From an uncultured Gammaproteobacteria bacterium (lineage in GTDB: Bacteria; Patescibacteriota; Microgenomatia; UBA8517), in contig CAYRUS010000001.1 of NCBI GenBank assembly GCA_964427735.1, positions 162,173 to 226,172 of the forward strand: 64,000 nucleotides of DNA, given 5' to 3'. Numbering within the stretch: position 1 is the stretch's first letter; every line of letters starts with the position of its first letter. Position numbers and translations under genes: made by a program. Shown piece by piece: positions 28,161-58,906 of the stretch. The notes beneath the pieces are model-generated. The model was given only the letters and a program-made list of their open reading frames with translations, ran no database searches and was not told the DNA's origin.

Positions 28161-28514
28161 TTACTTTTTCTTTGGAGGATTGCTTTTTTTTGTATCTTTT
28201 ATTGCTAATGTCCTAACTAGTTCTTCCAACTTTTTTTCTAGTTTTCTTGTTCTAACGTACATTACTGCAGACATGGAAATAACTATTAAAAAAGCAACCA
28301 CAACCATTAAATCAAACAGCCTAGTAATTAAAAAATTATATGATACTGTTCTAAGCAGTTCCGGAAATACAACAATAAAAGCAGTTCCGATCCAAATTAA
28401 TGCCCAAGAATAAAACTCCCTTTTGTTTATTTCTCCTTTTTTGTAATTTACTAATGAAAAATAAATCATAGATAATGAGAACACTATCCCAATAATTTGT
28501 AAACCTATTATCAT
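28161..28514 (-). CDS. Small membrane protein (DUF2304-like / GtrA-like accessory of polyprenyl-phosphate GT2)
   Basis: 117 aa with 3-4 TM segments and a basic C-terminal tail. Translationally coupled to the DPM1-like GT2 upstream (4-bp overlap). Confidence 0.5.
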   Translation of the reverse strand: MIIGLQIIGIVFSLSMIYFSLVNYKKGEINKREFYSWALIWIGTAFIVVFPELLRTVSYNFLITRLFDLMVVVAFLIVISMSAVMYVRTRKLEKKLEELVRTLAIKDTKKSNPPKKK

Positions 28515-29206
28515 ACTCTAAATCTCCAAGCTATAACATCAAATAAAACTTTAAATGCATCAAGAATCGATACTCCTTTGTACTTATCATAGTATACGGT
28601 CTTAACCGGCACTGTACAAAATTTTATCTTATACATTCCCACCTTAGCTATCATTTCTGTTTCTATCCCATACCCTGTTGAGGATAAATTTAAATTCTCA
28701 TAGCCTTTTTTAGTTAAAGCCCTATAACCACACAACAAATCATTAACTCTAATTCCAAATAGCATTTGAACTAAAAGACTACCAATTTTGTTACCCATGA
28801 ACCTAACAAAAGGGACACCTTCAGTTAAATTTCTTTCTCCGATTATAACGTCGTATTTTCTCTTTTTTAGAACATCTATAAATTTTTGCAAATCTTCAAT
28901 TTTATGCTGTCCATCAGAGTCCATAAATATAACAGCTTTCGCATTGTTTTCAAAAGCATACTCAGCACCTGTTCTCATTGCTGCTCCTTTGCCCAAATTC
29001 ACTTTGTGGTGCAACACAGTTAGCTTTTTACTTTTTAGAGCTTGTCTTGTTTTGTCTAGTGAGCCATCATCGATAATAACTACTGGATAATTGATTTTCT
29101 TTATATCTTTTAAAAAACGCCTGATAGTCTTTTCTTCGTTATAAGCAGGCACAACAATCCATATATTCATTATGATATTGTACTTTTTTTGATTAATACT
29201 TACCAA
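28511..29206 (-). CDS. Polyprenyl-phosphate sugar synthase (GT2; DPM1/GtrB/ArnC-like)
   Basis: 231 aa short GT2: WIVVPAYNEEKTI ... VVIIDDGSLDKT ... FMDSDGQH (DxD) ... catalytic-region CGYRAL. The size and motifs match dolichyl/undecaprenyl-phosphate glycosyltransferases. Confidence 0.75.
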   Translation of the reverse strand: MVSINQKKYNIIMNIWIVVPAYNEEKTIRRFLKDIKKINYPVVIIDDGSLDKTRQALKSKKLTVLHHKVNLGKGAAMRTGAEYAFENNAKAVIFMDSDGQHKIEDLQKFIDVLKKRKYDVIIGERNLTEGVPFVRFMGNKIGSLLVQMLFGIRVNDLLCGYRALTKKGYENLNLSSTGYGIETEMIAKVGMYKIKFCTVPVKTVYYDKYKGVSILDAFKVLFDVIAWRFRV

Positions 29207-30208
29207 TCAGGAGCGATTTTGGATGTACCAGTGGATAGTTTTAGCAAGACCCTCATCAAAGCTAGTTGAAGAAATAAAGCCAAATTTTTCAGCAGCCTTC
29301 GAGGTATCTAATTTACGTCGAGGCTGTCCATCTGGTTTAGAAGTATCCCAAGCAATTCTACCTGTAAAACCAACTAGATTTTTTATTTTTCCTGCTAACT
29401 CACGAATTGAAATTTCACAACTACTGCCAACATTAATAGGATCAGAATCATCATAAAATTGTGCAGCCAAAAGTATTGCTTCAGCAGCATCTTCAACATA
29501 CAAAAACTCTCTTGTTGCACTTCCGGTTCCCCAAACTACGACTTCATCTTTTCTTGACTCCTTCGCATCGACAAATTTTTTAATAAGAGCTGGTATTACA
29601 TGGGAAGACTCAGGATCAAAATTATCACCAGGACCATAAAGATTAACTGGAAGCAGATATATACTTTCCAATCCATATTGATTTCTATAAGCATCTCCCA
29701 AAACAAGAAGCATTTTTTTTGCAAGACCGTATGGTGCATTCGTTTCTTCTGGATACCCCATCCATAAATCTTCCTCTTTAAAAGGAACTGGAGTGTTTTT
29801 GGGATACGCGCACACTGTCCCTGTTATTACAACTTTCTTTACTTTAGCCTCATTTGCCACCTGCAAAACGTTCATACCCATAATCATATTATCCTTAAAA
29901 AGCTCTACAGGATAATTCATGTTATAACCAATTCCGCCTACGTTTGCGGCTAGATGCACTACAATATCTCCACTTATTACTTTTCTTGCACTTTCTAAAT
30001 CTCCTAAATCATATTCTTTCGAAGAAAAAGTAACGATCTCCTTTGGGCTATATTCTCTTAGTTTTGCTACTAAATGACTACCTAAAAACCCAGTACCGCC
30101 AGTAATTACAACTCTTTTTCCTTCCCAAAATTCCATTCTTTCCATGCTTCTTGGTAGATATTTTGCTTCTATTCCTGGAAGTTTTTTTCTGCCTTCTTCT
30201 GTACCCAT
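29207..30208 (-). CDS. fcl: GDP-L-fucose synthase family (GDP-4-keto-6-deoxy-D-mannose 3,5-epimerase/4-reductase, Fcl/WcaG-like)
   Basis: Collinear with the E. coli Fcl sequence as I recall it: GTVCAYPK (Fcl GSSCIYPK), ETNAPYGLAKK (PTNEPYAIAKI), NLYGPGDNFDPESSHVIPALIKKF, VVVWGTGSATREFLYVEDAA, INVGSSCEISIRELA, DTSKPDGQPRRKLD. The true start is probably an internal Met (MERMEFWEGKRVVITGG); the ORF carries a 21-aa N-terminal extension. Confidence 0.8.
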   Translation of the reverse strand: MGTEEGRKKLPGIEAKYLPRSMERMEFWEGKRVVITGGTGFLGSHLVAKLREYSPKEIVTFSSKEYDLGDLESARKVISGDIVVHLAANVGGIGYNMNYPVELFKDNMIMGMNVLQVANEAKVKKVVITGTVCAYPKNTPVPFKEEDLWMGYPEETNAPYGLAKKMLLVLGDAYRNQYGLESIYLLPVNLYGPGDNFDPESSHVIPALIKKFVDAKESRKDEVVVWGTGSATREFLYVEDAAEAILLAAQFYDDSDPINVGSSCEISIRELAGKIKNLVGFTGRIAWDTSKPDGQPRRKLDTSKAAEKFGFISSTSFDEGLAKTIHWYIQNRS

Positions 30209-30253: not shown

Positions 30254-31435
30254 CTATGCAATCCAATATCCTCTTATAAAAAGAGACAGATAAATAAATT
30301 GAAGTATGACACAAACAATAGACAATAATTTAAGTTGTGTCTTGGATAATGAAGATACAATTAATGGAAATATTGGAAACAAAACAAGAGAATATCTTGG
30401 CATTGATGAAAATGTTCCAGTAAGTGTGGGCACAAGTAAAGCAATAAAAATAAAAACTAAATAACTAAGACGGATATTCTTGTACAACAAAAATATCAAT
30501 ACAAAAGGTATAGTACCAAAGATAAACTCAGATAAAATATTAAAAAAATGCAAGCTTTTTAAATCAACTGAAAAAAGCATCTTAAAATATCTATAAATTA
30601 CTTGAGGATAAGGAACCAGAGGAATTGCACTTCTCTCAGCACCAAAGCCTGGTTGAGCTGAAAGAAAATACAGAGGGTCACCGTGCGCTTCATTCAAATA
30701 AAGCATATATATAAAAAGTCCTAAGGGAGCGATTAGAAAGCTTAAGAAAACAATTGCTTCATTTTTAACATCATTCTTTTTCTTTTGCAAATAAAACTCT
30801 ATTATTAATGCAAAAATAAGAAGGATACCTATTATTTTTGTCGCAGATGCAAGGCTTGCAAAAACACCTGAAACTAAAAATTTTCCTTTTCGAGCAAAAT
30901 ATAAACTTCCAGCTGCCAAGAATAAAAACAACGATTCCGTATAAATCGCCCCAAAATAAAAAGAAACAGGAAAAGCCAATAACAAAATCACTGAAAGAAA
31001 TGACGTGTTTTTATTGTTGTCTATTTTATAAAGTTTATAAACAAAAATTAATCCAGCCAAAAAAATTAAATTTGAAAGTAATAAGCCTGAATAAAAATAA
31101 GCAGGATCAACAAATATATCAGTATCTAAAGACAAATTTTTGGGAATAAATTTTGAAAATAACCTTATTAAAAAAGGAAAAAGAGGGAAAAAAGCTTCTG
31201 TATATTCTGAGTTATAACCGTTTTGTGCAATCCGTAGATAATGGACACCATCAAAATTACCAAAACCCCAAACCCAATTAGGTAAGCCTGTAATTTCTAA
31301 CGCAGTATCAGCATATGGAAATCTATTCCCAAAGACTGGAATAAAATAGATTGCAAACATCGCAACTACAAAAAGTACTATTCTCCAAGAAACAAAATAA
31401 AAAAATATTTGTCTAATCTCTAAGTAATTTTTCAT
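30254..31435 (-). CDS. GT-C membrane mannosyltransferase-like protein (PIG-V / GT76-like family)
   Basis: 393 aa polytopic. The motif NFDGVHYLRIAQNGYNSEYTEAFFPLFP matches the D-x-x-H/W-Y-L-x-I-A-x-x-G-Y ... AFFPL signature I associate with PIG-V-type mannosyltransferases. Confidence 0.45.
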   Translation of the reverse strand: MKNYLEIRQIFFYFVSWRIVLFVVAMFAIYFIPVFGNRFPYADTALEITGLPNWVWGFGNFDGVHYLRIAQNGYNSEYTEAFFPLFPFLIRLFSKFIPKNLSLDTDIFVDPAYFYSGLLLSNLIFLAGLIFVYKLYKIDNNKNTSFLSVILLLAFPVSFYFGAIYTESLFLFLAAGSLYFARKGKFLVSGVFASLASATKIIGILLIFALIIEFYLQKKKNDVKNEAIVFLSFLIAPLGLFIYMLYLNEAHGDPLYFLSAQPGFGAERSAIPLVPYPQVIYRYFKMLFSVDLKSLHFFNILSEFIFGTIPFVLIFLLYKNIRLSYLVFIFIALLVPTLTGTFSSMPRYSLVLFPIFPLIVSSLSKTQLKLLSIVCVILQFIYLSLFIRGYWIA

Positions 31436-32540
31436 AAACTTTTATAGTCTCGTTGGCTGTTTTATTCCAAGAATACTCTTTTGATTTAAGAACACCTTTC
31501 TCCACAAGATCTTCTTGTAATTTTTTATCTTTTACAACTTTGCTAATTTTATTTGCAAAATCGCTGATTTTTTTAGGATCAGCGTATATTGCAGCGTTAC
31601 CTGCTACTTCTCTATGCACTTTTATATCTGAAGCGACAACAGGAGTGCTGCATGCCATAGCCTCTAATAGAGGAAGTCCAAATCCTTCGCTATAAGAAGG
31701 CTGACAGTATACTGAAGCTAAATTATAAATAGCTACTAACTCCTCATCTCTCACATATCCAGTCAAAACTACATTCTCATCTAAAATAAGCCTTTTTAGA
31801 TCGGCTATGTGCACAAGTTCGGGATGAGGTTTATCAAACATAAACCTTACGTAATCCATCGGACCTTGAATACTATATTTAAATACAGGACTTTCTGCTA
31901 CATCCTTTGCATGTTTACCCACAATAACAAGAGGTAAACTTACTTTCTTTGATGCCTCAATTAAAGTACTCAAATTTTTGTTGTAATTTACATCACCAAC
32001 ATAAAGAACAAATTTATCTGGTAAAGAAAATTTCTTTTTGACAGCATTTAGCTTTTTCTTGTCTTCAACCTTTTTAAAACTACTATTGGCTGCTAAATAT
32101 GTGACGAATATTTTATCTTTAGGAAATTTCAAATGTTTTACGATATCATTTTTAGAAGCTTCCGAAATTGTTATGGCAGCGTCAACTTTTTTAAGCCGGG
32201 ATATGTTTTTGATTAAATTTATTTTTCCTTTAATTCCCGCAGGATAATTTAAAGGATAATTAAGTGGTATTAGGTCATCAATTGTTATTATTGTTTTTGA
32301 TTTAAATTTTTTGTTTGGAAGACTTAAAAAATATGGGTGAAACTGTGTAAAGTGCAAAATTTCATATCCTTCTAGCTTGTTTTTGTTAAAATCAATTGAT
32401 TTAATATCAAAATTTTTATTCTTATTTTTTAGGTGATCTGTTAATTCTTTTACCTGTACGCCAATACCTCTTATGCTATGACCACTAGCAAGCGCGGATA
32501 TATCAATTGCTACTTTTAATTTTTTATTACTACTTGGCAT
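31413..32540 (-). CDS. Glycosyltransferase family 4
   Basis: YSEGFGLPLLEAMACSTPVVASDIKVHREV. Confidence 0.8.
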   Translation of the reverse strand: MPSSNKKLKVAIDISALASGHSIRGIGVQVKELTDHLKNKNKNFDIKSIDFNKNKLEGYEILHFTQFHPYFLSLPNKKFKSKTIITIDDLIPLNYPLNYPAGIKGKINLIKNISRLKKVDAAITISEASKNDIVKHLKFPKDKIFVTYLAANSSFKKVEDKKKLNAVKKKFSLPDKFVLYVGDVNYNKNLSTLIEASKKVSLPLVIVGKHAKDVAESPVFKYSIQGPMDYVRFMFDKPHPELVHIADLKRLILDENVVLTGYVRDEELVAIYNLASVYCQPSYSEGFGLPLLEAMACSTPVVASDIKVHREVAGNAAIYADPKKISDFANKISKVVKDKKLQEDLVEKGVLKSKEYSWNKTANETIKVYEKLLRD

Positions 32541-33407
32541 TTAATTACGTATATATCTCATATAAGCACGAGGAAACCTAATCGCAGAAAAAAAGGAAAA
32601 AACTATTCCTTGATATCCATCTAATATTCCCTTGTGTCTTATCTGAGTCATAAAAAACCATCGAAGCGGCTTTATTATCATATATTTAATAAATGTAGAT
32701 AAATCTTTTTTTGTTTTATTGTCTTTTAACTCCTTAACCATCAATTTGATGTACCTGTCGTTTCTCATAATATACCTTTTAAAAGTTGGGTCCGCCATAT
32801 GAATAAGAGGATTTTGCAGCCAGCCTACTCTCCCATCCACAACAATTTGCTCGTGTACATCCTTTGCTGGAAAATAAGCCTTCCCATTTTTAATCAGACG
32901 TATAACCCCATCCGGATAAACACCACCATACCTTAAATATTTTCCCAGAAAATAATTTAATCTAGGGACAAAAAATCCTGCGTATTCTCCTACATTTTTG
33001 CCAATTTTTCCATCACGTTCTTCTATTAGTTTTGTGTGTCTATCAAACAGCTTTTTTTCTCTTAAAGATTTTTGATATTTTCCAATATCTTTATCTTCCA
33101 TTTGAATAATTTTTATTATTTCTTCAGATAATTCTTTACTGACAATTTCATCTGCATCAAGTTGGAGAATCCACTTATTTTTTGCTTTTTCCAAAGCTTT
33201 TTGCTTATTGATATGGAAAATTTGTTCATTTCTTACTTTATACACTTTTGCACCTTTTTTCTTGGCAATTTCCCTTGTTTTATCTTCAGATGAACCATCA
33301 ACTATAATAATTTCATCAGCAATATCTTTAACTGAATTCAGACATTTACCTATATTTTCTTCTTCGTTAAATGTTGCTAATACAACTGATAGTTTGTTTT
33401 TATTCAT
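32541..33407 (-). CDS. Glycosyltransferase family 2 (same subfamily as 16039..17022, 51483..52244 and 53222..54121)
   Basis: LSVVLATFNEEENI ... IIIVDGSSEDKT ... LQLDADEIV; C-terminal GKYLRYGGVYPDGVIRLIKNG segment. Confidence 0.8.
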   Translation of the reverse strand: MNKNKLSVVLATFNEEENIGKCLNSVKDIADEIIIVDGSSEDKTREIAKKKGAKVYKVRNEQIFHINKQKALEKAKNKWILQLDADEIVSKELSEEIIKIIQMEDKDIGKYQKSLREKKLFDRHTKLIEERDGKIGKNVGEYAGFFVPRLNYFLGKYLRYGGVYPDGVIRLIKNGKAYFPAKDVHEQIVVDGRVGWLQNPLIHMADPTFKRYIMRNDRYIKLMVKELKDNKTKKDLSTFIKYMIIKPLRWFFMTQIRHKGILDGYQGIVFSFFSAIRFPRAYMRYIRN

Positions 33408-33408
33408 T

Positions 33409-35007
33409 TTAATAAGTACTTACTATATAAAATGCTTCACCAATTTGACCTGGAAATTCAATTGGTTTTTGTGTTTTGAAAAAATCTTTGTACCTTAAAC
33501 CACTATACTGGCTTGGCGTCACAATATAAAGCTGACCATCTATAGGTGGACTTTCGATTGGATCCCAATTCCCAAAATTATATTTATCAAATGATTCTAT
33601 AGTATTATAACTTTTACTTTGGTTTTGATCGTATTTTAGAGAAGACAAAAGTTCTGGCAATGGGTACTGAAGGTAATACAGGAAGAAAATATAAGGTTGA
33701 CTACGTTCTTTTGTCATGTACACCTTGTGATAGTCTGGATTATCTTCCACGAATTGGACAATCTGTTTCATTCCGTATTGCCAATCATGAGGGTTCATAC
33801 GAGGATAATTTATTAGGTAATATGAATATGTATAAAGTGACTGAAATATAAAACAAGCTAAAATCACAAATAATGAAGCTGCCTCAATTTTTTTGTTTTT
33901 TGCTAACCTACTAAATCCCGCCACACCAACTGACGCCAATAATTGAGGAGGGCCGATCATAAATATAGACCTGGTTGAGTTTGCAATGTTGGTAGAAATT
34001 GCTCCTGGGAATGGAGCTATCAAAAGCCAAAAGAGCAATAAAATTAATTCCTTAAACTTCCTTTGGGAAAATAAAACAAAAATTCCAATAAAAGAGAATA
34101 TAACTACAACAACACTAAATTGTCCTTTGTCACCTATAAACCCTCTTGGATTTTGGTCACCACGAAATACAAGATAATCTAATGAGAAATATTCCTTGTA
34201 GTTTTTTAAAGATAATTCTAACTGCCCTAGATATTCATTACCAGTATTTTGGAATAGTATTGTTTCATTAATTAAATCGCTCGAGAACTTAGTTTGATTT
34301 GCTCTAGCAAGACCTAGCAATCGAGGCTCTATCACCAACAAGAAAATGAAAAACAAAAAAACTCCTACAGAAATAAATGACAACTTTTTTAATTGAAAAA
34401 GTTCTTTTGTATATAAAAGTACAAGTAATGGTACAAACAAAAACACAACAATTTTTGCAGAATGGTATGAAAGCAAGCTCACCCCAAAAAATCCAAAAGC
34501 AAGTGGTAAAAGATAGTTTTTCCTTTCTAATCCATGAAAAAACAGAGCAAACCCCGCTATGAAGAAAAAAAGCGCAAAGTTAGCTTCCCATAAACCTCTA
34601 GAATAGTGAATATGATAAACACTCAAAGCAAGGAAAATAGCAGATAAAAATGCCACTAACCTATTATTAAATAATTTATTTGCTAGTAGATAAATAAATA
34701 AAATAGTCAAACTTCCAAAAATAGCTGAAGGTAACCTCGTTGTAAAATCGTTTACTCCTAAAAATAAATAGAAAATAGAAGTTATATAAATGTGTACAGG
34801 ATGTTTATCATCCCTAAATGATGTAAAAACTAGTGGTAAAGTATCTCCCCATTCGTCTTTACCCCAATTTTTGATAGTAAAAGCGTTATAAGCTGCGGCT
34901 GCTTCATCCCAATTGAGAGAAGGAGGAACTGAAGTTATTTTAAATACTCTTAATATCCCTGCAATTATTACTATAGCTATTAAAATATATAAATATTTTT
35001 TATTCAT
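33409..35007 (-). CDS. GT-C membrane glycosyltransferase, PMT/ArnT-like (tandem paralog 1 of 4)
   Basis: 532 aa polytopic; N-terminal loop PPSLNWDEAAAAYNAFTIKNWGKDEWGDTLPLVFTSFRDDKHP. Confidence 0.7.
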   Translation of the reverse strand: MNKKYLYILIAIVIIAGILRVFKITSVPPSLNWDEAAAAYNAFTIKNWGKDEWGDTLPLVFTSFRDDKHPVHIYITSIFYLFLGVNDFTTRLPSAIFGSLTILFIYLLANKLFNNRLVAFLSAIFLALSVYHIHYSRGLWEANFALFFFIAGFALFFHGLERKNYLLPLAFGFFGVSLLSYHSAKIVVFLFVPLLVLLYTKELFQLKKLSFISVGVFLFFIFLLVIEPRLLGLARANQTKFSSDLINETILFQNTGNEYLGQLELSLKNYKEYFSLDYLVFRGDQNPRGFIGDKGQFSVVVVIFSFIGIFVLFSQRKFKELILLLFWLLIAPFPGAISTNIANSTRSIFMIGPPQLLASVGVAGFSRLAKNKKIEAASLFVILACFIFQSLYTYSYYLINYPRMNPHDWQYGMKQIVQFVEDNPDYHKVYMTKERSQPYIFFLYYLQYPLPELLSSLKYDQNQSKSYNTIESFDKYNFGNWDPIESPPIDGQLYIVTPSQYSGLRYKDFFKTQKPIEFPGQIGEAFYIVSTY

Positions 35008-36517
35008 TCTTATAAATTATAAAAGCTTCTTCACCTTTTAAATCACTTATAGTTTTTACCTGTTTATAATCTATATTAATATCTGGGGGAATTATTAGTA
35101 AAGAATTTTCTTCTAATTCAACATTTTCATTTGAGATAAATTTATACTTTCCGAATGATTCAACAGTAGAAACTCCCCATTTATCCGGTGGATTATAATT
35201 AACTTCATTCCAAAAAGATTCCGGGTCATATTTATTATAAAAAAGAGTAAATATATATGGTTGACCGTACGTATCCGCTACATGGACTTCATTAAATTCT
35301 TCGAAATTAATACTTTCAGAAAAAACTTGCTTGTAAGGGTATTGCCAATCTAAAGAAGTGGTTTTATTGTAATCAGTTAAAAACTTCTGAAAATACACTA
35401 AAAATGACAAAAACAAAGTAAATATAAGCACAAAATGAATGTATTTCGGATAGTTTTTCTTAACTAATAATGCTCCTGCACCTATAGCAGATATAATAGA
35501 AAAAGAAGGAGCCATTAAAATAGCTCTTAAGGCATGCGGAGATTCTCTTGTGATAGCAGCAGGAATGGGTGCAACTAATAGTAAGGCAAATGGAAGAAAA
35601 TATCTCCCTTTTTTCTTGAAAGTAGTATAAATCCCCACCACAACCAAAACTGATTCCATTAAATAAAGTTGTCCAAATCCGGGAATTTGACTTCTAGGGT
35701 TTGAGTCTCCATCCACAAACAAAAACGTTGGGTTAAAATGTGACATATAATTATTACCAAAATAAAAAATTTTATCTTTAAAAGTATCACCTTCAAGACC
35801 AATCGCTTGTAATCTACTTCCACCATAGTCTTGAAAATAAAGTTTTGTAATAGGCAATAAACTAATAACAAAAACTAAAAATGAAATAATTAAATACTTG
35901 TTTTTTATGATATTTGCTTTCTCTTTAATCAATTGAAGTGCAAATATAAACAAAATACTAATAGGGACAATAACTCTAAAACTATTGTAGTTATATATAC
36001 TTGCTATCCAACTTAGTACTACTAGCAAAAAATATTTAGAATTTCCCCAACTACTTAAAGAGAAAAATATACCTAATAGATAAAAAGCCAAACCTGCGGT
36101 TGCTTCATACCCAGTTCTTGAAAATATAAAGGTCCAAGGAGAGATAATGGATAAAAACAATGCATATAACCCAATAGTATTACTATTAGTTAGTTTTTTG
36201 GTGATTAAATATACTAAAATTACAGCAACAAAAGAATAAATCACAGAGGGCAGTCTTACTGAAAATTCATTTAAACCAAATAATGCAATAAAAGGAACAG
36301 CAGAATATATATACAAAGGAAGCTTAAACTCTCCAAATGCTCTAAAATGAAGAGGAAGAAACTCTCCCCATTCATCACTCCCTGTCTTTAATACTGAATA
36401 TGCGTTATATCCGATAGATGCTTCATCCCAATAAACAGAAGATGGTATTTGATTGATTTTATACAAACGAGTAAACAAAAAAAGTAAAACAATAAACCAA
36501 AGGAAATACCTCTTCAC
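35000..36517 (-). CDS. GT-C membrane glycosyltransferase, PMT/ArnT-like (tandem paralog 2 of 4)
   Basis: 505 aa; SSVYWDEASIGYNAYSVLKTGSDEWGEFLPLHFRAFGEFKLP. Confidence 0.7.
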   Translation of the reverse strand: MKRYFLWFIVLLFLFTRLYKINQIPSSVYWDEASIGYNAYSVLKTGSDEWGEFLPLHFRAFGEFKLPLYIYSAVPFIALFGLNEFSVRLPSVIYSFVAVILVYLITKKLTNSNTIGLYALFLSIISPWTFIFSRTGYEATAGLAFYLLGIFFSLSSWGNSKYFLLVVLSWIASIYNYNSFRVIVPISILFIFALQLIKEKANIIKNKYLIISFLVFVISLLPITKLYFQDYGGSRLQAIGLEGDTFKDKIFYFGNNYMSHFNPTFLFVDGDSNPRSQIPGFGQLYLMESVLVVVGIYTTFKKKGRYFLPFALLLVAPIPAAITRESPHALRAILMAPSFSIISAIGAGALLVKKNYPKYIHFVLIFTLFLSFLVYFQKFLTDYNKTTSLDWQYPYKQVFSESINFEEFNEVHVADTYGQPYIFTLFYNKYDPESFWNEVNYNPPDKWGVSTVESFGKYKFISNENVELEENSLLIIPPDINIDYKQVKTISDLKGEEAFIIYKNE

Positions 36518-38163
36518 TTTACCTCCACTATTTCAAATACCGGTTTCCCATCAAGGAAATAAAAAGTCTCAACTATATTAGCATCTGTTGGAAAATCTCC
36601 AGGCTTACCTACAACTAATATATCTTCATTTGGGTATTTGTTAATGATATCTTGATACTTTGTGCCTTCATCTCCTAAGTCAGGAAATAAAAATTTACCA
36701 AAGCTTTCTACCCAAACCCAATCATGAGATTGATACCTCTTTAAATTCGGATCTGTTTGGAAAGAATCTGGTGGATATTGTAAATAAAACAATGCAAAAA
36801 TATGAGGTTCTCCATAATGTCTCGTAACTACAATTCGATCATAATCTGTAATCCTAGGTTCTATAAAATCATAAACCTGCTTATATCCATATTGCCATTC
36901 TCTTGAGTATGCAAAAGGATAAATAAAATAATAATTAAATAAATACAAACTAAATTGAAACATAAAAACAAAAATTACTAGTGACCATACCGAAAACTGG
37001 TATACTCTTTTTTTGTCTTTGAGATACTTATATGCCTTGTATAATCCATAGGCAGAAATAAGTTGAAAAACAGGCAATGCTATTAAAGTTCTTAAAGCAT
37101 GGGGAATTGTATCGCGGGTCGTCGCTGCAGGTATAATTGAAATTACCAACCAAATTATCAAAATCCATCTATACTTAGATTTATCTTTAAACAATAGGTA
37201 AGCTCCAATAACTAAAAACGGTGCTTGTATCCAGAATAACTCACCTATTCCTTGAACATGGTGATGCTTGTGTTCTGCACCCCTTAAAAATAAAAATTGA
37301 GGACTGAAGTGAGATAGATAATTCTTTGCAAAATAATATGATATATATACTGGTCTGTTGTGGATTAAATTGGTGATTAAACCTGAAAGTTCGGACTCAT
37401 TTCTTCTCTCTTCAATTCTTGGCACGAGACCTGGGTCAGTGGTAATACTAACTAATTCATATCTAGCAGAACCCTCCCCACTTAAAACAAAAGGCACTAA
37501 AGGTAGCAATAATATTAAAAATAATCCACCTGCGAGTAAAAAATAATTTTTAAATTTGAGTATTTCCTTTTGATATACTGCTGCAGTTATCAAAAGAAAA
37601 ATTGGCACAAAAAATCTTGCACTATTGTAGGTATAAACTGCAATCGCAAAAGGAACTGCACTTACTATCCACCACCTCTTATCAGTATTGAAACCACGAA
37701 CAAGAAACCAAACCCCCAACAGTACCCAAAATAAAGAAAAAGAAGATTCAAAAGACGCGCGAGTCAACTGAATATGCCAAACTGAAGTCGCCATTAAAAA
37801 GGCAGTGAAAACCCCTATTTTTTTATTTGAAAATATTTCTTTAGCTACAAAATACGATAATAAAACAGTCAAGGTTCCATAAACAACTGGTGTTATCCTT
37901 ACCCCAAATGCATTAAGACCAAAAAATGCAATCCCCGGAATTGAAGCGTATATTTGAGCTGGAAGCTTATATTCTCCGAAAGATCTAAAATGTAAAGGTA
38001 AAAAACTATTCCACTCGTCTTTACCTGTTTTTAGAATAGAATAAGCGTTATAGCCAATAGACACTTCATCCCAATTGAGTGATGGAGGAATTTCAGTCAC
38101 CTTATTAATTCTTAATAAAAATCCAAGTAAAGCAACTAAAACAATTATCAAAAAGTTTCTCAT
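36514..38163 (-). CDS. GT-C membrane glycosyltransferase, PMT/ArnT-like (tandem paralog 3 of 4)
   Basis: 549 aa; PPSLNWDEVSIGYNAYSILKTGKDEWNSFLPLHFRSFGEYKLP. Confidence 0.7.
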   Translation of the reverse strand: MRNFLIIVLVALLGFLLRINKVTEIPPSLNWDEVSIGYNAYSILKTGKDEWNSFLPLHFRSFGEYKLPAQIYASIPGIAFFGLNAFGVRITPVVYGTLTVLLSYFVAKEIFSNKKIGVFTAFLMATSVWHIQLTRASFESSFSLFWVLLGVWFLVRGFNTDKRWWIVSAVPFAIAVYTYNSARFFVPIFLLITAAVYQKEILKFKNYFLLAGGLFLILLLPLVPFVLSGEGSARYELVSITTDPGLVPRIEERRNESELSGLITNLIHNRPVYISYYFAKNYLSHFSPQFLFLRGAEHKHHHVQGIGELFWIQAPFLVIGAYLLFKDKSKYRWILIIWLVISIIPAATTRDTIPHALRTLIALPVFQLISAYGLYKAYKYLKDKKRVYQFSVWSLVIFVFMFQFSLYLFNYYFIYPFAYSREWQYGYKQVYDFIEPRITDYDRIVVTRHYGEPHIFALFYLQYPPDSFQTDPNLKRYQSHDWVWVESFGKFLFPDLGDEGTKYQDIINKYPNEDILVVGKPGDFPTDANIVETFYFLDGKPVFEIVEVK

Positions 38164-38180
38164 AAAATCCTCAAAAAAAA

Positions 38181-39809
38181 TTAATTTATCTCAGTAACTA
38201 TCATCGCTGGTTCGTTGTCTATTGAATATATAATGCTATTATAATTAGTCACATAATCTTTTTCGTTTATTTGGCCAATATACAAAGTATTTGAAGGCTG
38301 GTTTTCAAGAAAGACATTAATCTCACTTCTTGGAGTAGAACCTATATAAACATTGCCATATTGTAAAAACTCATGTCCATTAATAACAGAAAGATCGTCT
38401 TTATTAATTACAACTACTGGATCAATTTCAGAATACACACGATAGGCAGGTATTATACTTTCTATGCTTGATGAGAGGATTATCCTATCGTAATTACCCT
38501 TATTTTCATTGGCATAAACTGTTGCAATTTCAGCATGCTTAGCCCAAAATTTTGATTGTATAACAGGCTCGACAAAATAAAATCTCGCTAATGCTAAAAT
38601 TAGCTGAGATATTAATAAAAATACTGCAAAATAACCAATCAACCTGTAATTTTTAGATAAGTAGTAAAAACCCAATGATGACAAAATCGTTATAGCAGGA
38701 AACATGAATGAGTTTCTTAACGCATGCTGATCTAACATAAAAGCAGTTGCTATAGGAGTTATTAGTATCCAAGAAAATATTAAGATCGACAATTTATTCC
38801 TCTTTTTGAACATCAAATATATTCCTAAAAATATGGTTATTATTTCTACCCAATAAAACTCCCCCATTGATGTCATGTTGTGACGAGGATTATTGTCTCC
38901 TTCAGTAAACAAAAATCCAATTGAAAAGTTACTCAAATATGACCTTAAAAAGACCATTGAATACTCAATAACTCTATTATGAAAAAGCGGGTCGATAAAC
39001 TCAGGTAGATTATTGCTTATCCTCTCGTAGTTCACTTTTTCAACAATCCTATTGTTAAGAGCTTGGTTACTAAAAATATTTTGATTCAAAAATCTCTCTT
39101 CAGAACCTGCAAATAAAGTTTGATGAACAGATAAAATACCTGCAATTAATAAAATAAAAATTGAAAATATTACCTCTAATTTATATTTACTAACTAATTT
39201 TGTAACTTCCTTTTTGTAAACCACAAAAATAACAATTAACAAAATGGGTAAAGTTAACTTGTAAACAGGATAAGTATGAATAGCTAAGCCCCAACTTATT
39301 GCCCAAATGTATAAGTATTTAATGTTTTTTTGTGATTTTAGTAAAGAATATAAACCAAGTAGAGATAGAAACAATGCAAAATGGGCTTCATAACCACCTC
39401 TTGATAATGATAAGCTCCACAATGAAATTGATGAAAAAGCTGCAGAAATTATAGCCACCTTTTCACTAATAAATTCTTTTACAAAAAGGTATGTAATAGC
39501 TATTATCCCAAGGCTCGACAGTATAGACAAAAACCTAACACCTAGAGCAGTAGGTCCGAATAAATATACAAAAGGTATTGAGAAATATACATAACCAGCA
39601 GGTCTCCCTGCACCAGACGAAAATGTTAATGGCAAAAGCTCTCCAAACTGATCTTTACCGGTTTTTAGAATTGAATAAGCATCATATGCAATAGTTAGTT
39701 CATCTCCATATAAAGATAGTTCAGTAACTTTATAGAATCGAAGAACAGCAGAAAATAATAATATTAAAACTAATATTTTATATTTACTCATTTGCGGATA
39801 CAGGTCCAT
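38181..39809 (-). CDS. GT-C membrane glycosyltransferase, PMT/ArnT-like (tandem paralog 4 of 4, most divergent)
   Basis: 542 aa; ELSLYGDELTIAYDAYSILKTGKDQFGELLPLTFSSGAGRPAGY. Confidence 0.65.
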   Translation of the reverse strand: MDLYPQMSKYKILVLILLFSAVLRFYKVTELSLYGDELTIAYDAYSILKTGKDQFGELLPLTFSSGAGRPAGYVYFSIPFVYLFGPTALGVRFLSILSSLGIIAITYLFVKEFISEKVAIISAAFSSISLWSLSLSRGGYEAHFALFLSLLGLYSLLKSQKNIKYLYIWAISWGLAIHTYPVYKLTLPILLIVIFVVYKKEVTKLVSKYKLEVIFSIFILLIAGILSVHQTLFAGSEERFLNQNIFSNQALNNRIVEKVNYERISNNLPEFIDPLFHNRVIEYSMVFLRSYLSNFSIGFLFTEGDNNPRHNMTSMGEFYWVEIITIFLGIYLMFKKRNKLSILIFSWILITPIATAFMLDQHALRNSFMFPAITILSSLGFYYLSKNYRLIGYFAVFLLISQLILALARFYFVEPVIQSKFWAKHAEIATVYANENKGNYDRIILSSSIESIIPAYRVYSEIDPVVVINKDDLSVINGHEFLQYGNVYIGSTPRSEINVFLENQPSNTLYIGQINEKDYVTNYNSIIYSIDNEPAMIVTEIN

Positions 39810-39875: not shown

Positions 39876-41873
39876 GTGATAAAATGTTTATACAATAATA
39901 GTATAATGGATATCATACTAACATACCTACTTTTCCCTGTTCTATGCCTATTGTTATTTATTGGAACCGGGTTACTATTACTTAAATACTTGGGTAATAA
40001 CAAATCTTATTCTTTAGAATCTATAGTTTTTGGCACTGTAATCGGGTATGTAGTGCTTAATTTAGTAGCATATTTTTTTCTAATACTTCATATTTCTTTT
40101 TGGATAATTCCATTTGGAATCGCCTTATTGATTTATCTTAATAAAGACATTTTCAACAAAATTAAAATTAATAAAACCATCTCAAGACTTGATCTTATTT
40201 CTATTGCAGTTTTTATGATTGGGGTAATTTTTCAGCTTTTAGTCATAGCTCCTAGTGGAATCACTAAAAATGGCGATTTACTGTTTTGGAGCTCTCATGG
40301 TCATGATGCAACTTGGCATATAGCTGTAATGAATAAAATTGCGGAAGGTTTTCCATTAGAAAATCCCATCTTCTCTCTAGAAAGACTTTATAACTATCAT
40401 TATTTTTTTAATATCTTGCCTGCCATATTTATGAAAAACTTCAACCTTTCTGAGATTGAAATGTACTTTCGATTGTTCCCTTTACTTTTCAGTATTCTTC
40501 TTGGCAGCACAGCATATTATCTAGGTAAGAAAGTTGGCAAGTCGCAAACGGCAGGCATTTGGAATATGTTTTTTGTATATTTTGTCGGAAGCTTTGGCTA
40601 TATAGCCACCTTAATAAAAGATGGTATAGTCGGAGGAGAAAGTATTTTCTGGGCTTCACAGGTTCATAGCTCTATTGGAAACCCACCTCAAATCATTTCA
40701 AATTTTTTGGTTTTGTCTTTTCTATATTTTATATTTGACTATTTTAATACCAAAAGAAAATCAGACTTTATTTTCTGTGTTTTAATTGCCTCAGTATTAC
40801 CTGTATTTAAGGTATATGCAGCAGTTATAGTTTTCCTTTCTTTAGGTGTTATAGCAATAATTCGTTTAATCACAGTAAAAAATTTTGATATTTTTGTAAT
40901 GACATTCATTTCTGCTCTCTTTGCAGCTGTTTTGTATTTGCCAAATACCCTGTCCTCAGCATCATTTTTAATTATTGAACCATGGTGGTATATAAGAACT
41001 ATGATTGTCTCAGAAGGACGTCTAAATTGGATTGATCACGAATTAAGAAGACAGACTTTCCTTGCTCATAACAATTATTTGAGGGTAATCCAACTAGAGT
41101 TAATAGCTTTTGTCATTTTTATAGTTGGAAACTTAGGAACACGAATAGTCGGATTAACTTATTTTATTAAAAATATTAAAAAATTCTTTGTAGATAATTT
41201 TTATGCACTATTAACCATGATTGCTACTTTTTCAGTTGTATTACCTTTGCTGTTTTTACAAAAAGGAGTAGTAAGTAATACTGCTCAATTTCTTCAATAT
41301 TTTTTGTTGACTTTTGGTATTGCTGCTTCGATTTCTATTGACGAATTACTTAAAAAAGTAAAACAAAGTCAGGCAAAAGCCGTAATAGTCCTAATACTAA
41401 TATTTATTTCTGCACCAACACAAATTGGATTGTTATTTGATTTTTACCAGAGACCTGCATTTGCTAAAGTATCAAAGCTAGAGTTAGAAGCTTTAAATTT
41501 TACGAAAATGAATTCTGCTGATTCTGATGTAATTATAGTCCCCTCATACGACCCACATACAAATACTGATGAAGAAACACCGCCAATCTGGGATTGGTTT
41601 GATACTTCGTATGTTTCCGCCTTTGCAAAAAGAAGTGTTTATTTTGCTGACTACGAGCAACTGGATATAATGGGCTATGACTTTAATGAAAGAAAAGATC
41701 TAGTAGAAAAACTGTTTAACACTAACTCCCCATCGGAGTTTGACACTTTGTTCAAAAAAAGTGGTTCTAGCATATTATACTTTCCTAAAATGATGCGTCC
41801 CGATGTATTTCTGCCAATGACTAGTTTAGAAAAAAAATATGAAAATGATGAAGTAGAAATATGGTCTTATTGA
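39876..41873 (+). CDS. Large polytopic membrane protein, unassigned family with GHDAxWHIA motif (paralog of 54619..56385); candidate novel GT-C-type transferase or polymerase
   Basis: 665 aa. SSHGHDATWHIAVMNKIAEGFPLENP after TM2. Conserved C-terminal YVSAFAKRSVYFADYEQLDIMGYDFNERKDLVEKLFNTNSP, aligned with YVSAFTKKPVYLEDEVNLTIMNYPWQERREKLDEFLKDSNSP in the partner. The real start may be the ATG at 39906 (MDIIL...). Confidence 0.5.
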   Translation: MIKCLYNNSIMDIILTYLLFPVLCLLLFIGTGLLLLKYLGNNKSYSLESIVFGTVIGYVVLNLVAYFFLILHISFWIIPFGIALLIYLNKDIFNKIKINKTISRLDLISIAVFMIGVIFQLLVIAPSGITKNGDLLFWSSHGHDATWHIAVMNKIAEGFPLENPIFSLERLYNYHYFFNILPAIFMKNFNLSEIEMYFRLFPLLFSILLGSTAYYLGKKVGKSQTAGIWNMFFVYFVGSFGYIATLIKDGIVGGESIFWASQVHSSIGNPPQIISNFLVLSFLYFIFDYFNTKRKSDFIFCVLIASVLPVFKVYAAVIVFLSLGVIAIIRLITVKNFDIFVMTFISALFAAVLYLPNTLSSASFLIIEPWWYIRTMIVSEGRLNWIDHELRRQTFLAHNNYLRVIQLELIAFVIFIVGNLGTRIVGLTYFIKNIKKFFVDNFYALLTMIATFSVVLPLLFLQKGVVSNTAQFLQYFLLTFGIAASISIDELLKKVKQSQAKAVIVLILIFISAPTQIGLLFDFYQRPAFAKVSKLELEALNFTKMNSADSDVIIVPSYDPHTNTDEETPPIWDWFDTSYVSAFAKRSVYFADYEQLDIMGYDFNERKDLVEKLFNTNSPSEFDTLFKKSGSSILYFPKMMRPDVFLPMTSLEKKYENDEVEIWSY

Positions 41874-41874: not shown

Positions 41875-42546
41875 TTAATCCTGGCTTTTCCAAATGAAAA
41901 TTATTAATGTTATTATTAACACAGCATAAAACACCACGAATTTTGTATCAAAAATAAACTGATTAATAAAATCTTTATACACACTAGATATTAGATCAAA
42001 TTTACTTTCTGGTTTATAAATTGGCAAAATTGACAAATTACCATCAATTTTTTCTTGGTTATAAAATAAATCACTCATCCACCTCTTAAGTTCATTTGAA
42101 TAAAAAATCTGAAGAGCGTTAAGAGAATTAGATGTTGGAGAATTAATTCTTATTTCATACCATTTATTTTCTGATTCAAAAATCGGCTCAAATCTAAATT
42201 GTACAAATTCTCCGTCAGGAATATTGAGCCCATTTATATGTGATGATCTTATTAAATTATCATCTTCATAAAGCTCTAAATATATATTTTCATTATTTCT
42301 AAAATTCGGGTTTTTAATACTAGTTCCAAAGCCAATAAGGTTATTTTTGTCTGAATATATTACTTGTTTGATTTGATTGTCTTCATAGACATCTAAAGTT
42401 GCATCCAAACTAGGCTGTGAATGCAAATAAAAAGCATCAAGAGTAAATAAAATACTTATTGGAATTATTAAAATAAAAAATGCTATTAAAGTAACTGCGT
42501 ACAAAAGTACTTTAGTTTGTAATTTTTTCATTTTTGTAACATACAA
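41875..42546 (-). CDS. Hypothetical bitopic membrane protein (N- and C-terminal TM helices, central domain of about 150 aa)
   Basis: 223 aa; N-terminal VLLYAVTLIAFFILIIPISILF and C-terminal FVVFYAVLIITLIIFIW hydrophobic segments. Same topology as 9350..9910. Confidence 0.4.
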   Translation of the reverse strand: MYVTKMKKLQTKVLLYAVTLIAFFILIIPISILFTLDAFYLHSQPSLDATLDVYEDNQIKQVIYSDKNNLIGFGTSIKNPNFRNNENIYLELYEDDNLIRSSHINGLNIPDGEFVQFRFEPIFESENKWYEIRINSPTSNSLNALQIFYSNELKRWMSDLFYNQEKIDGNLSILPIYKPESKFDLISSVYKDFINQFIFDTKFVVFYAVLIITLIIFIWKSQD

Positions 42547-43732
42547 AGACAGTCAATAAACCCACAATAAACAAAATAATTTTTACTAAGTTTGTCAACA
42601 ATCCAACATCCATAATCTTACTAACAAATATGTATGGGTATGAAGCCTGATGAAATATCTGACTAATCGGAGTTAGCAAAGAAACACTTAAATATCTGTC
42701 GTTTATTAAAAGTGGCGCAACAAAACTCAAAATCATAATAACAAGAGAAGGTGCTATATATTTACTATTTCTAATAGTTAGAATAATGAGGAATGGCAAA
42801 AACCACAAGATCCACTGAATATGATAATCAACCATAGTAACTAAAAGTAAAGTTGATGACAGAAAAAATAACCAATACCCTTTAATTCTATTAATGTATA
42901 GATACAAAAATGCTATCGAATAAACTATCAAGTAATATGGAATTTTCTTGGGTAAACCGATATCTACTCCGTGTTCAAAAATCCGATTTGTTAATCCAGA
43001 AGAAAGAGAAGCATTAAAAAAATCACTACCCATAAAAGGAAGTAATATTAAAACAAATACTGCTAGCGATACTACAAAATTTATTAATTGATTCTTGAAT
43101 TTTCCCTTTGTTAAGAAAAGTACAGGAAGCAATAAAATTGGATATGCCTTAATACCCGCTCCTATAGCCAAAGACAAACCAGCGTGCAAACTCTGCTTCT
43201 TTTTTAGAAACAATAATGAAAGTATTGTAAAAAAGACAGCTAAGATATCAATGTTACTATAAAAATAAATAATAGCTATACTAAAAGGATTAAATAACCA
43301 AAAGGTAAAAGCCAACTCTTTATTCCTCTTCTTCTCAAACAATTTATAAATTAAAAATGCAATGAAAAGATCCAAAAAAAGATATGGCAACTTTAAGACA
43401 AACAGATATCTATATAAATAGTCTGTATTCTCTCCATTAAGCCAATGATAGAATTCTGAACCTAAAAATGGACTAACCACAAGCTGATAGGTTCCTAAAA
43501 AAAGATATGCAAGAGGAAAATATACAAACTCTTCTTTAAAGTGATGATTTTCTTTATTATCTTCTAGATAAGAATATATGTTAATTACTCCTGATTTTAG
43601 GTATTGTGATTGAGAATGATAAACTCTTATATCTGGGTGAAAGAAAAATGGCATTAATATAATTCTTATTAATATTGCCAGCAGCAAAAACCATCTAAGA
43701 GTTTTATTTTTTAATATTTCTTGCATTGTCAA
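42512..43732 (-). CDS. Polytopic membrane protein, possible GT-C-like transferase (DUF2029/GT87-like?)
   Basis: 406 aa with about 11 TM segments; N-terminal FFHPDIRVYHSQSQYL loop. Family assignment is tentative. Confidence 0.35.
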   Translation of the reverse strand: MTMQEILKNKTLRWFLLLAILIRIILMPFFFHPDIRVYHSQSQYLKSGVINIYSYLEDNKENHHFKEEFVYFPLAYLFLGTYQLVVSPFLGSEFYHWLNGENTDYLYRYLFVLKLPYLFLDLFIAFLIYKLFEKKRNKELAFTFWLFNPFSIAIIYFYSNIDILAVFFTILSLLFLKKKQSLHAGLSLAIGAGIKAYPILLLPVLFLTKGKFKNQLINFVVSLAVFVLILLPFMGSDFFNASLSSGLTNRIFEHGVDIGLPKKIPYYLIVYSIAFLYLYINRIKGYWLFFLSSTLLLVTMVDYHIQWILWFLPFLIILTIRNSKYIAPSLVIMILSFVAPLLINDRYLSVSLLTPISQIFHQASYPYIFVSKIMDVGLLTNLVKIILFIVGLLTVFVCYKNEKITN

Positions 43733-45377
43733 TTTTTAAATTAAAAATATAGCATCCAACTATTATAAATGCTGCAATTGAAGTCAAATCAAGAAATAAT
43801 TTAGACTTTGTTTCAGTAAAGTAATATGAAATATTGTATCTGCCTTTGTCTACGTTAAAACTTACCTGCCCATGTGGTTCTCCGGGAAATATTTCTGCTT
43901 TTTTATTGTTTATGTAAACATTCCACCCAGGGAAATAATACTTCCTTAGATTTACATTGGTTACCTGATTAACATTAATATTAGCTTCAAATTTTAATGG
44001 ATTAATCTCGATCAATTCTATTACCTCAACACCTTCACCATAAATTTCCGGCAAAACACTACTAGGTCTTTGGGAAGTATGTTTAGTAAGTCTTAAATAC
44101 TCTTCAGATGTTTCCAGATATTCTGTGCTAGCATCTGGGTAAGGAATATACCTATTTAGATAATATTCGTCTGTTCTTCCCAAGTAGTCTTGAGGATGAA
44201 AATACCTAAAAGTACTAAATATTATTAGTGCTATTAAAACAACTGACAAAATCAGCCTTTTTGAAAAATAAGATAAAGTAATTAAAAATAGTGGCGACAA
44301 AAATGTTGTTAACATTAAAAACCTCCAAGGGAATTGAAAGTACTGAATTAAAGGTACATTTTCCCAAACGAGTGCAGATCGATGATTCATCATAAAAATA
44401 CTGATCATAAAAACACTAATCATCCAAACAAAAAGTGATTTAACAAATTTATCCATCTTTTTCCATTTCAACACCAAGATCAGAATTCCAAAAGCAACTG
44501 CTAATAAATTAAACAAGCCTACAAAAAATGACATTCCATCATAAGGACCAGGCACAGAAGCTCCATAACCAAAATATGGAGTTATCAATTGTTTAATAGT
44601 AGGGAAATGATCGTAAAAATTAAAAACAGTATCAAACTTCATTAACCTACTATCTAGAATTGCAGGTAACCAAAAATAAATGCTAATGAAAAATCCAAAT
44701 AAATACATAATTAAGTAATTTTTAATTGTGTAGATATCATTATTTACGAAAATCAAAATGATAATTAAAAGAATTGAAGTAGGGATAAACATATATGCAG
44801 CAATGTTGTGGGTTAATATTAACCCTGCAATGGCAATCGCTCCTACACCAATCCACCGTCTCTCATCTTTAAAAACTTTAATAATAGATAAAATAATCAG
44901 AGGTAAAAAAACAAATGATAATATTTCACCTATAGCACCTCTAACATACAAGTCGGTTGCTCGATATGGTGTATAGGCATACAATACTCCTGCTGCTAAA
45001 GCAACAAATTTATTAGATAACTCTTTTGCCAATAGATACATAAAATATACAGAAAGAGGAATACTTAAAACAAAAACCGCTTTAATGCTGTCAACAAGAC
45101 TAAGTCCAAACAAGTTAAATATTTCAGCAAGATAAAAAGGCAAAGGGAAAACAAAATTGAAAAGCGGATATCCAAACCTAAAACTTAAATCAGGTACATA
45201 TCTTGGTGGAATTTGTCCAGAAATTAATGATCTGTGCATTTGATGTAACCAAGCAATATGAATATCATCAGATGCACCAAAATATCCAGGAACAAAAAGT
45301 GCTGAAACTGCTGGCAATGATAAGACAATTATCAATAATATTATGTATTTATCGAAATATTTTTCTAATTTTTTCAT
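43704..45377 (-). CDS. YfhO-like GT-C membrane glycosyltransferase (tandem paralog 1 of 3)
   Basis: 557 aa; N-terminal GYFGASDDIHIAWLHQMHRSLISGQIPPRYVPDLSFRFGYPLFNFVFP. C-terminal YYFPGWNVYINNKKAEIFPGEPHGQVSFNVDKGRYNISYYF resembles the FPGW ... G.H.v.f.Y C-terminal domain of YfhO-family proteins. Confidence 0.5.
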   Translation of the reverse strand: MKKLEKYFDKYIILLIIVLSLPAVSALFVPGYFGASDDIHIAWLHQMHRSLISGQIPPRYVPDLSFRFGYPLFNFVFPLPFYLAEIFNLFGLSLVDSIKAVFVLSIPLSVYFMYLLAKELSNKFVALAAGVLYAYTPYRATDLYVRGAIGEILSFVFLPLIILSIIKVFKDERRWIGVGAIAIAGLILTHNIAAYMFIPTSILLIIILIFVNNDIYTIKNYLIMYLFGFFISIYFWLPAILDSRLMKFDTVFNFYDHFPTIKQLITPYFGYGASVPGPYDGMSFFVGLFNLLAVAFGILILVLKWKKMDKFVKSLFVWMISVFMISIFMMNHRSALVWENVPLIQYFQFPWRFLMLTTFLSPLFLITLSYFSKRLILSVVLIALIIFSTFRYFHPQDYLGRTDEYYLNRYIPYPDASTEYLETSEEYLRLTKHTSQRPSSVLPEIYGEGVEVIELIEINPLKFEANINVNQVTNVNLRKYYFPGWNVYINNKKAEIFPGEPHGQVSFNVDKGRYNISYYFTETKSKLFLDLTSIAAFIIVGCYIFNLKIDNARNIKK

Positions 45378-47034: not shown

Positions 47035-47040
47035 AAAATA

Positions 47041-58102: not shown

Positions 58103-58132
58103 ATATTAAGTATACACTTAAGAACCAAGCCT

Positions 58133-58561: not shown

Positions 58562-58725
58562 GTTTATTTTTTGTATAAATTAATAATTTCATTCTACTTC
58601 ACTTGTCTACAGTAATAAAATAATTACTAAGAAAAGAACAACAACGTCCAGTTCTTGAGGAAGCTAGGAGTTTCAGTGTTAATCTTGATGAATTCTACCA
58701 AGAAAGACAAGCTCCACGCGATATC

Positions 58726-58902: not shown

Positions 58903-58906
58903 TAAT

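Follow-up and report, generated by a model that had tools for sequence, protein, structure and literature searches.

The known enzyme closest to the proteins considered here is ArnT (GT83; structures 5EZM/5F15), the undecaprenyl-P-L-Ara4N:lipid A transferase, which carries RYA and YFEKP motifs in its first periplasmic loop and requires Y43 and K69 for activity (PMC5377068). Three-component systems (Gtr-type; GT136 of Citrobacter youngae) act outside the membrane on an already completed glycan, by means of a polyprenyl-phosphate-sugar synthase, a flippase and a glycosyltransferase (GT) of the GT-C class whose C-terminal domain binds the substrate (PMC11127046). In Mycobacterium tuberculosis, the Rv3631/Rv3632 pair supplies the GT-C enzyme Rv3779 (PMC3485146). 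Here we describe a tandem array of four genes, P1 to P4, at positions 33409-39809 of a 64-kb stretch of DNA from an ultra-small Microgenomates bacterium of Daviesbacteria/Woesebacteria-like type (contig CAYRUS010000001.1, positions 162,173 to 226,172; hereafter the window, meaning this whole stretch). Their products are ArnT/PMT_2-type membrane glycosyltransferases of the GT-C class, from a subfamily found throughout the Microgenomates. The best overall explanation, which we hold to be probable rather than secure, is that they are ancient, intact paralogs that transfer polyprenyl-phosphate sugars to extracytoplasmic acceptors.

The four open reading frames (ORFs) all lie on the minus strand, co-directional and nearly abutting. 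Their lengths of 532, 505, 549 and 542 aa (P1 to P4) are exactly those reported in a first-pass annotation of the window, which had recognised four consecutive genes. In the direction of reading they are P4 (38181..39809; codons of its D36-E37 dyad at 39699-39704), P3 (36514..38163; D32-E33, 38065-38070), P2 (35000..36517, with a GTG start; D31-E32, 36422-36427) and P1 (33409..35007; D34-E35, 34903-34908). P3 is the best conserved copy and P4 the most divergent. A 17-nt gap with GAGGA ahead of the P3 start separates P4 from P3, P2 shares 4 nt with P3 and 8 nt with P1, and the following gene, a GT2 (32541-33407), begins 1 nt downstream of P1. This spacing suggests that P4-P3-P2-P1-GT2 form an operon-like unit. 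Promoter and terminator scans of the P1-P4 region gave signals no higher than shuffle expectation, and tRNA and Rfam searches of the same region returned no match; the G+C content of the window is ∼31%. P1-P4 were also called as genes on an independent assembly of the same organism, and a ∼760-kb NCBI contig and a Logan assembly both carry an identical P3 protein.

P1-P4 are mutual paralogs. In BLASTP comparisons of all window ORFs they matched one another far above chance, at 28-33% identity (E 7e-27 to 6e-84), over the full length of P1-P3 and over only the first 400-450 aa of P4. At the nucleotide level the divergence noted previously was evident, since blastn recovered only patches of 85-179 nt at 67-76% identity, all within the part coding for a shared N-terminal signature. 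That signature, initially attributed to all four proteins, is literal in P2 and P3 and degenerate in P1 (LNWDEAAAAYNAFTIKNWGKDEWG...LPLVFTSFRDDKHP) and P4 (LYGDELTIAYDAYSILKTGKDQFG...LPLTFSSGAGRPAG); 11 of its positions are invariant in the four copies (S28, D32, E33, Y38, A40, G47, D49, L55, P56, L57 and F59; P3 numbering is used throughout). In P3 the translated signature reads SLNWDEVSIGYNAYSILKTGKDEWNSFLPLHFRSFGEYKLP (37960..38082, minus strand) and would lie in the first extracytoplasmic loop (EL1), the putative catalytic and donor-binding element. Conservation between the paralogs peaks in EL1 (33-69% identity), while EL4 is rich in indels and the C-terminal outer domain is divergent, that of P4 being only 7-16% identical to those of the other copies. 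Because EL1 is conserved while EL4 and the C-terminal domain diverge, P1-P4 would share catalysis and donor class and differ in acceptor position.

All four proteins scored above the gathering threshold of Pfam PMT_2 (PF13231; 26.1 bits): P1 at 46.5 bits (6e-12), P2 at 36.3 (8.1e-9), P3 at 44.0 and P4 at 33.9 (4.4e-8). PMT (PF02366; threshold 22.7 bits) was matched above gathering by P1 (35.6 bits, 9.7e-9) and P3 (32.2 bits) and just below it by P2 (21.6 bits), with no match in P4. No non-GT family was matched. The NCBIfam equivalog model of ArnT (PRK13279, cutoff 567) detected P3 only, at 26.2 bits over residues 78-221; matches to the Agl23-type model TIGR03663 and to the Leptospira LA_3751/2 family were also sub-threshold. 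When a 72-sequence profile of the family was compared with all PDB sequences, ArnT was the sole significant match (E 1.3e-5, residues 67-224); with E allowed up to 10, the profile recovered this ArnT match and a marginal STT3, and no solved PMT. A Pfam scan of P1-P4 at E <= 0.01 found neither a PMT_4TMC nor a MIR domain, and general family scans of the window ORFs found none of the arn pathway genes (ArnB/C/A/D/E/F). The original description of the quartet as PMT/ArnT-like stands as regards PMT_2 membership and GT-C fold and does not extend to membership of ArnT (26 against 567 bits) or of PMT (MIR and PMT_4TMC absent). P1-P4 fall within Pfam PMT_2 and the GT-C fold class, and are neither true ArnT nor true PMT (GT39) proteins. 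Their names in public databases are generic ('GT family 39 protein', 'ArnT-like') and should not be taken to imply O-mannosylation or lipid A modification. Literature searches on GT-C arrays of the Candidate Phyla Radiation (CPR) or Microgenomates found nothing specific; P1-P4 are an uncharacterised set within a known kind of enzyme, already deposited under those generic names.

An AlphaFold2 model of P3 (pLDDT 90.7, pTM 0.89) was used for structural comparison. Its N-terminal transmembrane (TM) module superposes on solved GT-C enzymes, with ArnT as the top fold match, and Foldseek returned the same set. The fold matches include Pmt1-Pmt2, which the first-pass annotation had proposed for comparison together with ArnT, as well as the Pmt4 dimer, EmbA-EmbB, AftA, AftB, AftD and PimE. 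On this predicted model, the GT-C fold of P3 is established.

The putative active site is retained in every copy. Invariant positions in the 72-sequence alignment are D32-E33, Y38, D49, P56, F59, Y72, G82, R89, S127, R135, E139, Y179, R358 and W423. The D-E dyad is conserved in at least 95% of members within each of the four orthogroups (orthologues from 82 loci), rather than lost from most copies, and therefore no copy looks like a pseudo-enzyme; judged by these residues, P1-P4 appear catalytically intact. The P4 orthogroup carries its own variant, G-D-E ... G-x-G-R-P, likewise at least 95% conserved, with GDE in place of WDE and Arg in place of K66. In both a hidden Markov model (HMM) alignment and a MAFFT alignment with Escherichia coli ArnT, K66 of G-E-Y-K-L-P aligned with the Lys of YFEKP, and R89 and K199 were common to the family and ArnT. 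Y38, A40 and K66 (R in P4) are conserved in motifs that read (I/A)-G/A-Y-N/D-A and G-E-x-K-L-P, to be compared with RYA and YFEKP. By eye, ArnT P-D-E-T-R-Y-A appears equivalent to W-D-E-V-S-I-G-Y-N-A, a reading that MAFFT offsets by two columns, the distance at which it places the two D-E dyads.

Hydropathy and the Lys/Arg content of the short loops predict ∼11 TM helices with the N terminus inside and the C terminus outside. This topology would expose on the outer face EL1 (residues 24-87, including D-E), EL4 (229-308) and the C-terminal domain (416-549). In P3 this last element is a predicted alpha/beta domain of residues 415-549 (36517..36921, minus strand) with a conserved (D/E)W motif, containing W423, at its start; it gave no significant match to oligosaccharyltransferases (OSTs) and is not a recognised carbohydrate-binding module (CBM). 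W423 lies just past the last TM helix (D/E-W-Q-Y-G in P1-P3) and is invariant in six very divergent PMT_2 paralogs of the window, among them P1, P2 and the products of 12802-14220 and 60021-61607. Its position recalls the WWDYG motif of OSTs; W-Q-Y-G differs from WWDYG and is lost in P4.

The first-pass annotation had considered the duplications old, and orthologues in other genomes bear this out. Each copy has its own reciprocal orthologues, at 43-48% identity for P1 (loci L003 and L005), 46-51% for P2, 57-58% for P3 and 45% for P4 (L005), against 28-35% between paralogs, and gene order is conserved; the duplications are therefore ancient. A neighbour-joining tree rooted on E. coli ArnT gave all four orthogroups bootstrap support of 100/100. 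The quartet clade received the same support and the proteins encoded at 12802, 60021 and 5582 fell outside it, so that P1-P4 alone form one subfamily. Named homologues belong to Candidatus Daviesbacteria, Woesebacteria, Shapirobacteria and other Microgenomates, with P1 orthologues at 64 loci, P2 at 60 and P4 at 30. A scan of one genome per species found a relative in at least 488 species genomes, and a profile of the four paralogs retrieved 28,836 clusters (50% identity) at E <= 1e-3, and 5,439 at E <= 1e-30. The title 'uncultured Gammaproteobacteria bacterium' (binchicken/SRP co-assemblies) is attached to many metagenome-assembled genomes with clear Microgenomates-type arrays, loci L010 and L015-L017 among them. 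Their loci match Daviesbacteria and Woesebacteria loci in content, and the titles look like placeholder or wrong taxonomy.

Synteny around the array is also conserved. The order P3>P2>P1 on the same strand was found in 55 of the 79 related species-level loci with a P3 orthologue, the three genes being directly adjacent in 47, and a P4 orthologue lay upstream in 23 of these 79. On the downstream side, same-strand orthologues of the GT2 (68/82 loci, median identity 54%), of a GT4 (61/82) and of a PIG-V-like GT-C (59/82) follow. What is truly conserved, then, is P3-P2-P1-GT2-GT4-PIG-V-like, to which P4 and other paralogs add a variable part on the upstream side. Counting 10 kb to each side, loci hold 1-8 family members; of 393 family hits, 160 belong to none of the four orthogroups, and the extra unassigned copies, 23-37% identical to P1-P4, lie mostly upstream of P3. 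Taken together, these data define an ancient module that is a hallmark of the lineage.

How such enzymes might work can be drawn by analogy with ArnT, PMT, mycobacterial GT-C enzymes and three-component systems. A cytoplasmic GT2 would load a sugar onto polyprenyl phosphate, candidates being a PpgS-like GT2 with its DUF2304 partner (28161-29206) and a PgfS/ArnC-like GT2 (61631-62389). The lipid-linked sugar would then be flipped across the membrane, and each paralog would attach it at an acceptor position of its own on a glycoconjugate outside the cytoplasm, most likely a surface glycan built by the surrounding 64-kb island. The outer-face elements available for this would be the conserved EL1 (D-E, Y38, K66 or R in P4, and R89), the long and variable EL4, and the C-terminal alpha/beta domain. 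We infer that P1-P4 share one chemical class of donor, polyprenyl-phosphate sugars, and act on different acceptors outside the membrane. Their most likely role is to add sugars to a glycan or glycoprotein of the cell surface. That they work one after another on a single glycan, as raised in the first-pass annotation, is plausible from the genomic context. A more specific proposal, which we put forward only tentatively, is that P(4)-P3-P2-P1-GT2-GT4-PIG-V-like constitute a Microgenomates-specific extracytoplasmic assembly line, in which three or four GT-C enzymes, perhaps as a hetero-complex, build, stepwise from polyprenyl-phosphate sugars, a surface glycopolymer or glycoprotein glycan that defines the lineage.

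Several points weigh against transfer of polyprenyl-phosphate sugars by four such enzymes. Neither acceptor nor donor can be read from the sequence, and the P1-P4 subfamily has no characterised member. The nearest solved relatives are only ∼11-14% identical, fold scores are nearly equal for mono-sugar GT-Cs (ArnT, PMT, ALG) and for OSTs, and the topology derives from hydropathy and charge bias rather than from a dedicated predictor. The candidate polyprenyl-phosphate-sugar synthases score under NCBIfam equivalog cutoffs, and no GtrA or SMR-type flippase was seen in the 64-kb window. Finally, since loci vary between one and eight members, a fixed four-step pathway is not universal.

Of the competing explanations, protein O-glycosylation survives best, although we regard it as unlikely. 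P1-P4 would then be PMT-like (GT39) enzymes, each using a polyprenyl-phosphate sugar to modify Ser/Thr residues in its own set of secreted or surface proteins (S-layer proteins or pilins, for example). Against such a function, the MIR and PMT_4TMC domains were not detected, sequence and fold alike match ArnT best, the YFEKP-type Lys is a feature of ArnT, and the conserved neighbours are of polysaccharide type (GT2, GT4, PIG-V-like, Wzx-like, Wzy_C and ABC-2).

Somewhat less probable again is that P1-P4 are subunits of a single hetero-oligomeric GT-C machine, comparable to Pmt1-Pmt2 or EmbA-EmbB, rather than independent enzymes acting in sequence. Stop codons that overlap the next start point to coupled translation, P3, P2 and P1 are strictly ordered and adjacent in 47 of 79 loci, and solved dimers (Pmt1-Pmt2, the Pmt4 dimer, EmbA-EmbB) occur among the fold hits. 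Each copy nevertheless retains its own catalytic residues, most loci lack P4 or have it unlinked, and copy number ranges from one to eight. A hetero-oligomer would in any case be compatible with transfer of polyprenyl-phosphate sugars to extracytoplasmic acceptors, the explanation we prefer.

We consider it improbable that P1-P4 form a diversifying, partly redundant set that varies surface decoration, for instance to evade phage or host recognition, with no fixed pathway order. The extra members upstream of P3, which vary in number and type, and the 160 of 393 hits outside the orthogroups speak for this reading. P1, P2 and P3, however, have one-to-one orthologues whose order is kept across Daviesbacteria, Woesebacteria and other Microgenomates, which argues for fixed, non-redundant roles of these three core copies. 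An OST-like function (STT3/PglB/AglB), with preassembled glycans taken from polyprenyl-diphosphate carriers, is very improbable: P1-P4 gave no STT3 match in Pfam, the sole STT3-type NCBIfam match was a marginal one of P3 to TIGR04154 archaeo_STT3 (E 6.5e-4, 18.2 bits against a cutoff of 450, residues 89-127), the EL1 motif is of ArnT type, the WQYG sequence is not WWDYG and is lost in P4, and the C-terminal domain lacks a significant OST match.

The array lies within a glycan island. Family scans of the window ORFs indicated that almost the whole 64 kb is devoted to glycan biosynthesis, with ∼13 GT2 and ∼9 GT4 proteins and eight PMT_2 proteins above threshold, namely P1-P4 and the products of 5582-7054, 12802-14220, 47041-48756 and 60021-61607. 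Two more, 43704-45377 and 30254-31435, score just under PMT_2 gathering, so that the seven proteins of this type counted at first sight were roughly right as a number and slightly too few. The island also encodes GT87-like and PIG-V-like GT-Cs, two Wzx-type (MOP) transporters, an ABC-2 pair, a Wzy_C/O-antigen-ligase-like protein, a mannose-1-phosphate guanylyltransferase (ManC), a GDP-fucose-synthase-like enzyme, methyltransferases and an acetyltransferase.

Immediately downstream of P1, on the same minus strand, lie the three conserved partners of the array: the GT2 (32541..33407; Pfam Glycos_transf_2, 7.4e-22), the GT4 (31413..32540; Glycos_transf_1, 5e-33) and the PIG-V-like (Mannosyl_trans2) GT-C (30254..31435; PF04188, 7.1e-15). 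Further along, also on the minus strand, are a GDP-L-fucose synthase-like epimerase/reductase (29207..30208; NCBIfam GDPFucSynFcl 1.6e-87, under the equivalog cutoff; Pfam Epimerase 4.2e-55), a short GT2 that is a candidate polyprenyl-phosphate-sugar synthase of PpgS/AglJ/Dol-P-hexose transferase-like type (28511..29206; NCBIfam PpgS 2.2e-37 over the full model length, under cutoff; AglJ 2.5e-30), and, adjoining the latter, a 117-aa DUF2304 membrane protein (28161..28514; Pfam 1.7e-19). The short PgfS/ArnC-like GT2 at 61631-62389, the other candidate donor synthase, adjoins the PMT_2 gene 60021-61607.

A second tandem array occupies 43704-48756 on the minus strand, upstream of the GT87-like gene 42512-43732. 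Its three polytopic proteins (557, 561 and 571 aa) are mutually 28-37% identical (E 3e-57 to 4e-105), match Pfam PTPS_related (PF10131) and weakly or marginally PMT_2, and are probably a further set of GT-C-like paralogs. The proteins of 39876-41873 (plus strand) and 54619-56385 (minus strand), with ∼12-13 TM helices each, are paralogs of one another (30% identity over ∼590 aa, E 4e-64) and matched no Pfam or NCBIfam family. The former is the only plus-strand gene of its stretch and showed no significant similarity to the quartet profile; in 33 of 82 loci an orthologue of it sits just ahead of the array on the upstream side. Three more large polytopic proteins with 8-14 hydrophobic segments fall in no Pfam family: 14210-15898 (minus), 17811-19850 (plus) and 62426-63964 (minus). 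In the last of these, N-W-D-Q-E aligns with N-W-D-E of the quartet (hhalign E 5e-4, probability 31%), and all three are possibly very distant GT-C relatives. Profile comparison of the 14210, 17811, 39876, 62426 and 45349 ORFs with the quartet gave weak or no similarity (hhalign probability at most 31%). A small non-glycan insert interrupts the island at 57836-60018 (minus strand), with a NUDIX hydrolase (58133-58561; 2.1e-23), a P-loop kinase-like protein (58907-59410) and small ORFs without family.

The locus stands out for how deeply its tandem module is conserved and for the share of a reduced genome devoted to glycan assembly. CPR/Microgenomates genomes are tiny, yet the 64-kb glycan stretch would amount to roughly 8% of the ∼760-kb contig that carries P3. 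Because the array has been retained in order in reduced genomes across Daviesbacteria, Woesebacteria and related lineages, its surface product presumably matters for the Microgenomates lifestyle. The conserved module thereby offers a concrete, testable target for study of the surface coat of these uncultivated cells. Should stepwise assembly by the conserved unit prove correct, its product would be a key surface determinant of ultra-small symbionts, for example in host attachment.

Set against described systems, the quartet is closest to ArnT, the best match by sequence and fold. Both have the GT-C fold, an EL1 with D-E, a conserved Tyr and an (E)-x-K-x-P comparable to RYA/YFEKP, and a C-terminal alpha/beta domain, predicted to be extracytoplasmic in P1-P4. 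They differ in that identity is ∼11%, P1-P4 have ∼11 predicted TM helices where ArnT has 13 (PMC5377068), and ArnT is a single gene of the E. coli arn operon whereas a conserved multi-paralog array is found here. The acceptor must also differ from that of ArnT, since CPR bacteria are not known to make lipid A. PMTs (GT39; yeast Pmt1/Pmt2/Pmt4 and actinobacterial Pmt) differ as well: P1-P4 have no MIR domain in the long loop and no PMT_4TMC, and PMTs lack the C-terminal soluble alpha/beta domain predicted for P1-P4.

Three-component systems follow the same logic as that proposed for the quartet, and the window encodes MOP/Wzx-type transporters. Each modification in those systems relies on a single GT-C, whereas three or four related GT-Cs stand in tandem here; moreover, no dedicated small flippase of GtrA or ArnE/F type was seen in the window, and the C-terminal domain is no recognised CBM. 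The ER (endoplasmic reticulum)-lumenal mannosyltransferases ALG3, ALG9 and ALG12 are eukaryotic, are encoded by unlinked genes and have no such C-terminal soluble domain, so that the analogy with them is one of logic only. The mycobacterial GT-C systems (PpgS/Rv3632/Rv3779; Emb, Aft and PimE) are alike in several respects: the PpgS-like GT2 and the DUF2304 protein of the window are arranged as the Rv3631/Rv3632 pair, in mycobacteria several GT-C paralogs assemble or decorate the same wall glycan outside the membrane, and AftA, AftB, AftD, EmbA and PimE are among the fold hits of P3. If P1-P4 and their conserved partners do work as an assembly line, the array would represent a bacterial equivalent of ALG3/9/12 in the ER lumen or of mycobacterial arabinan/mannan assembly.

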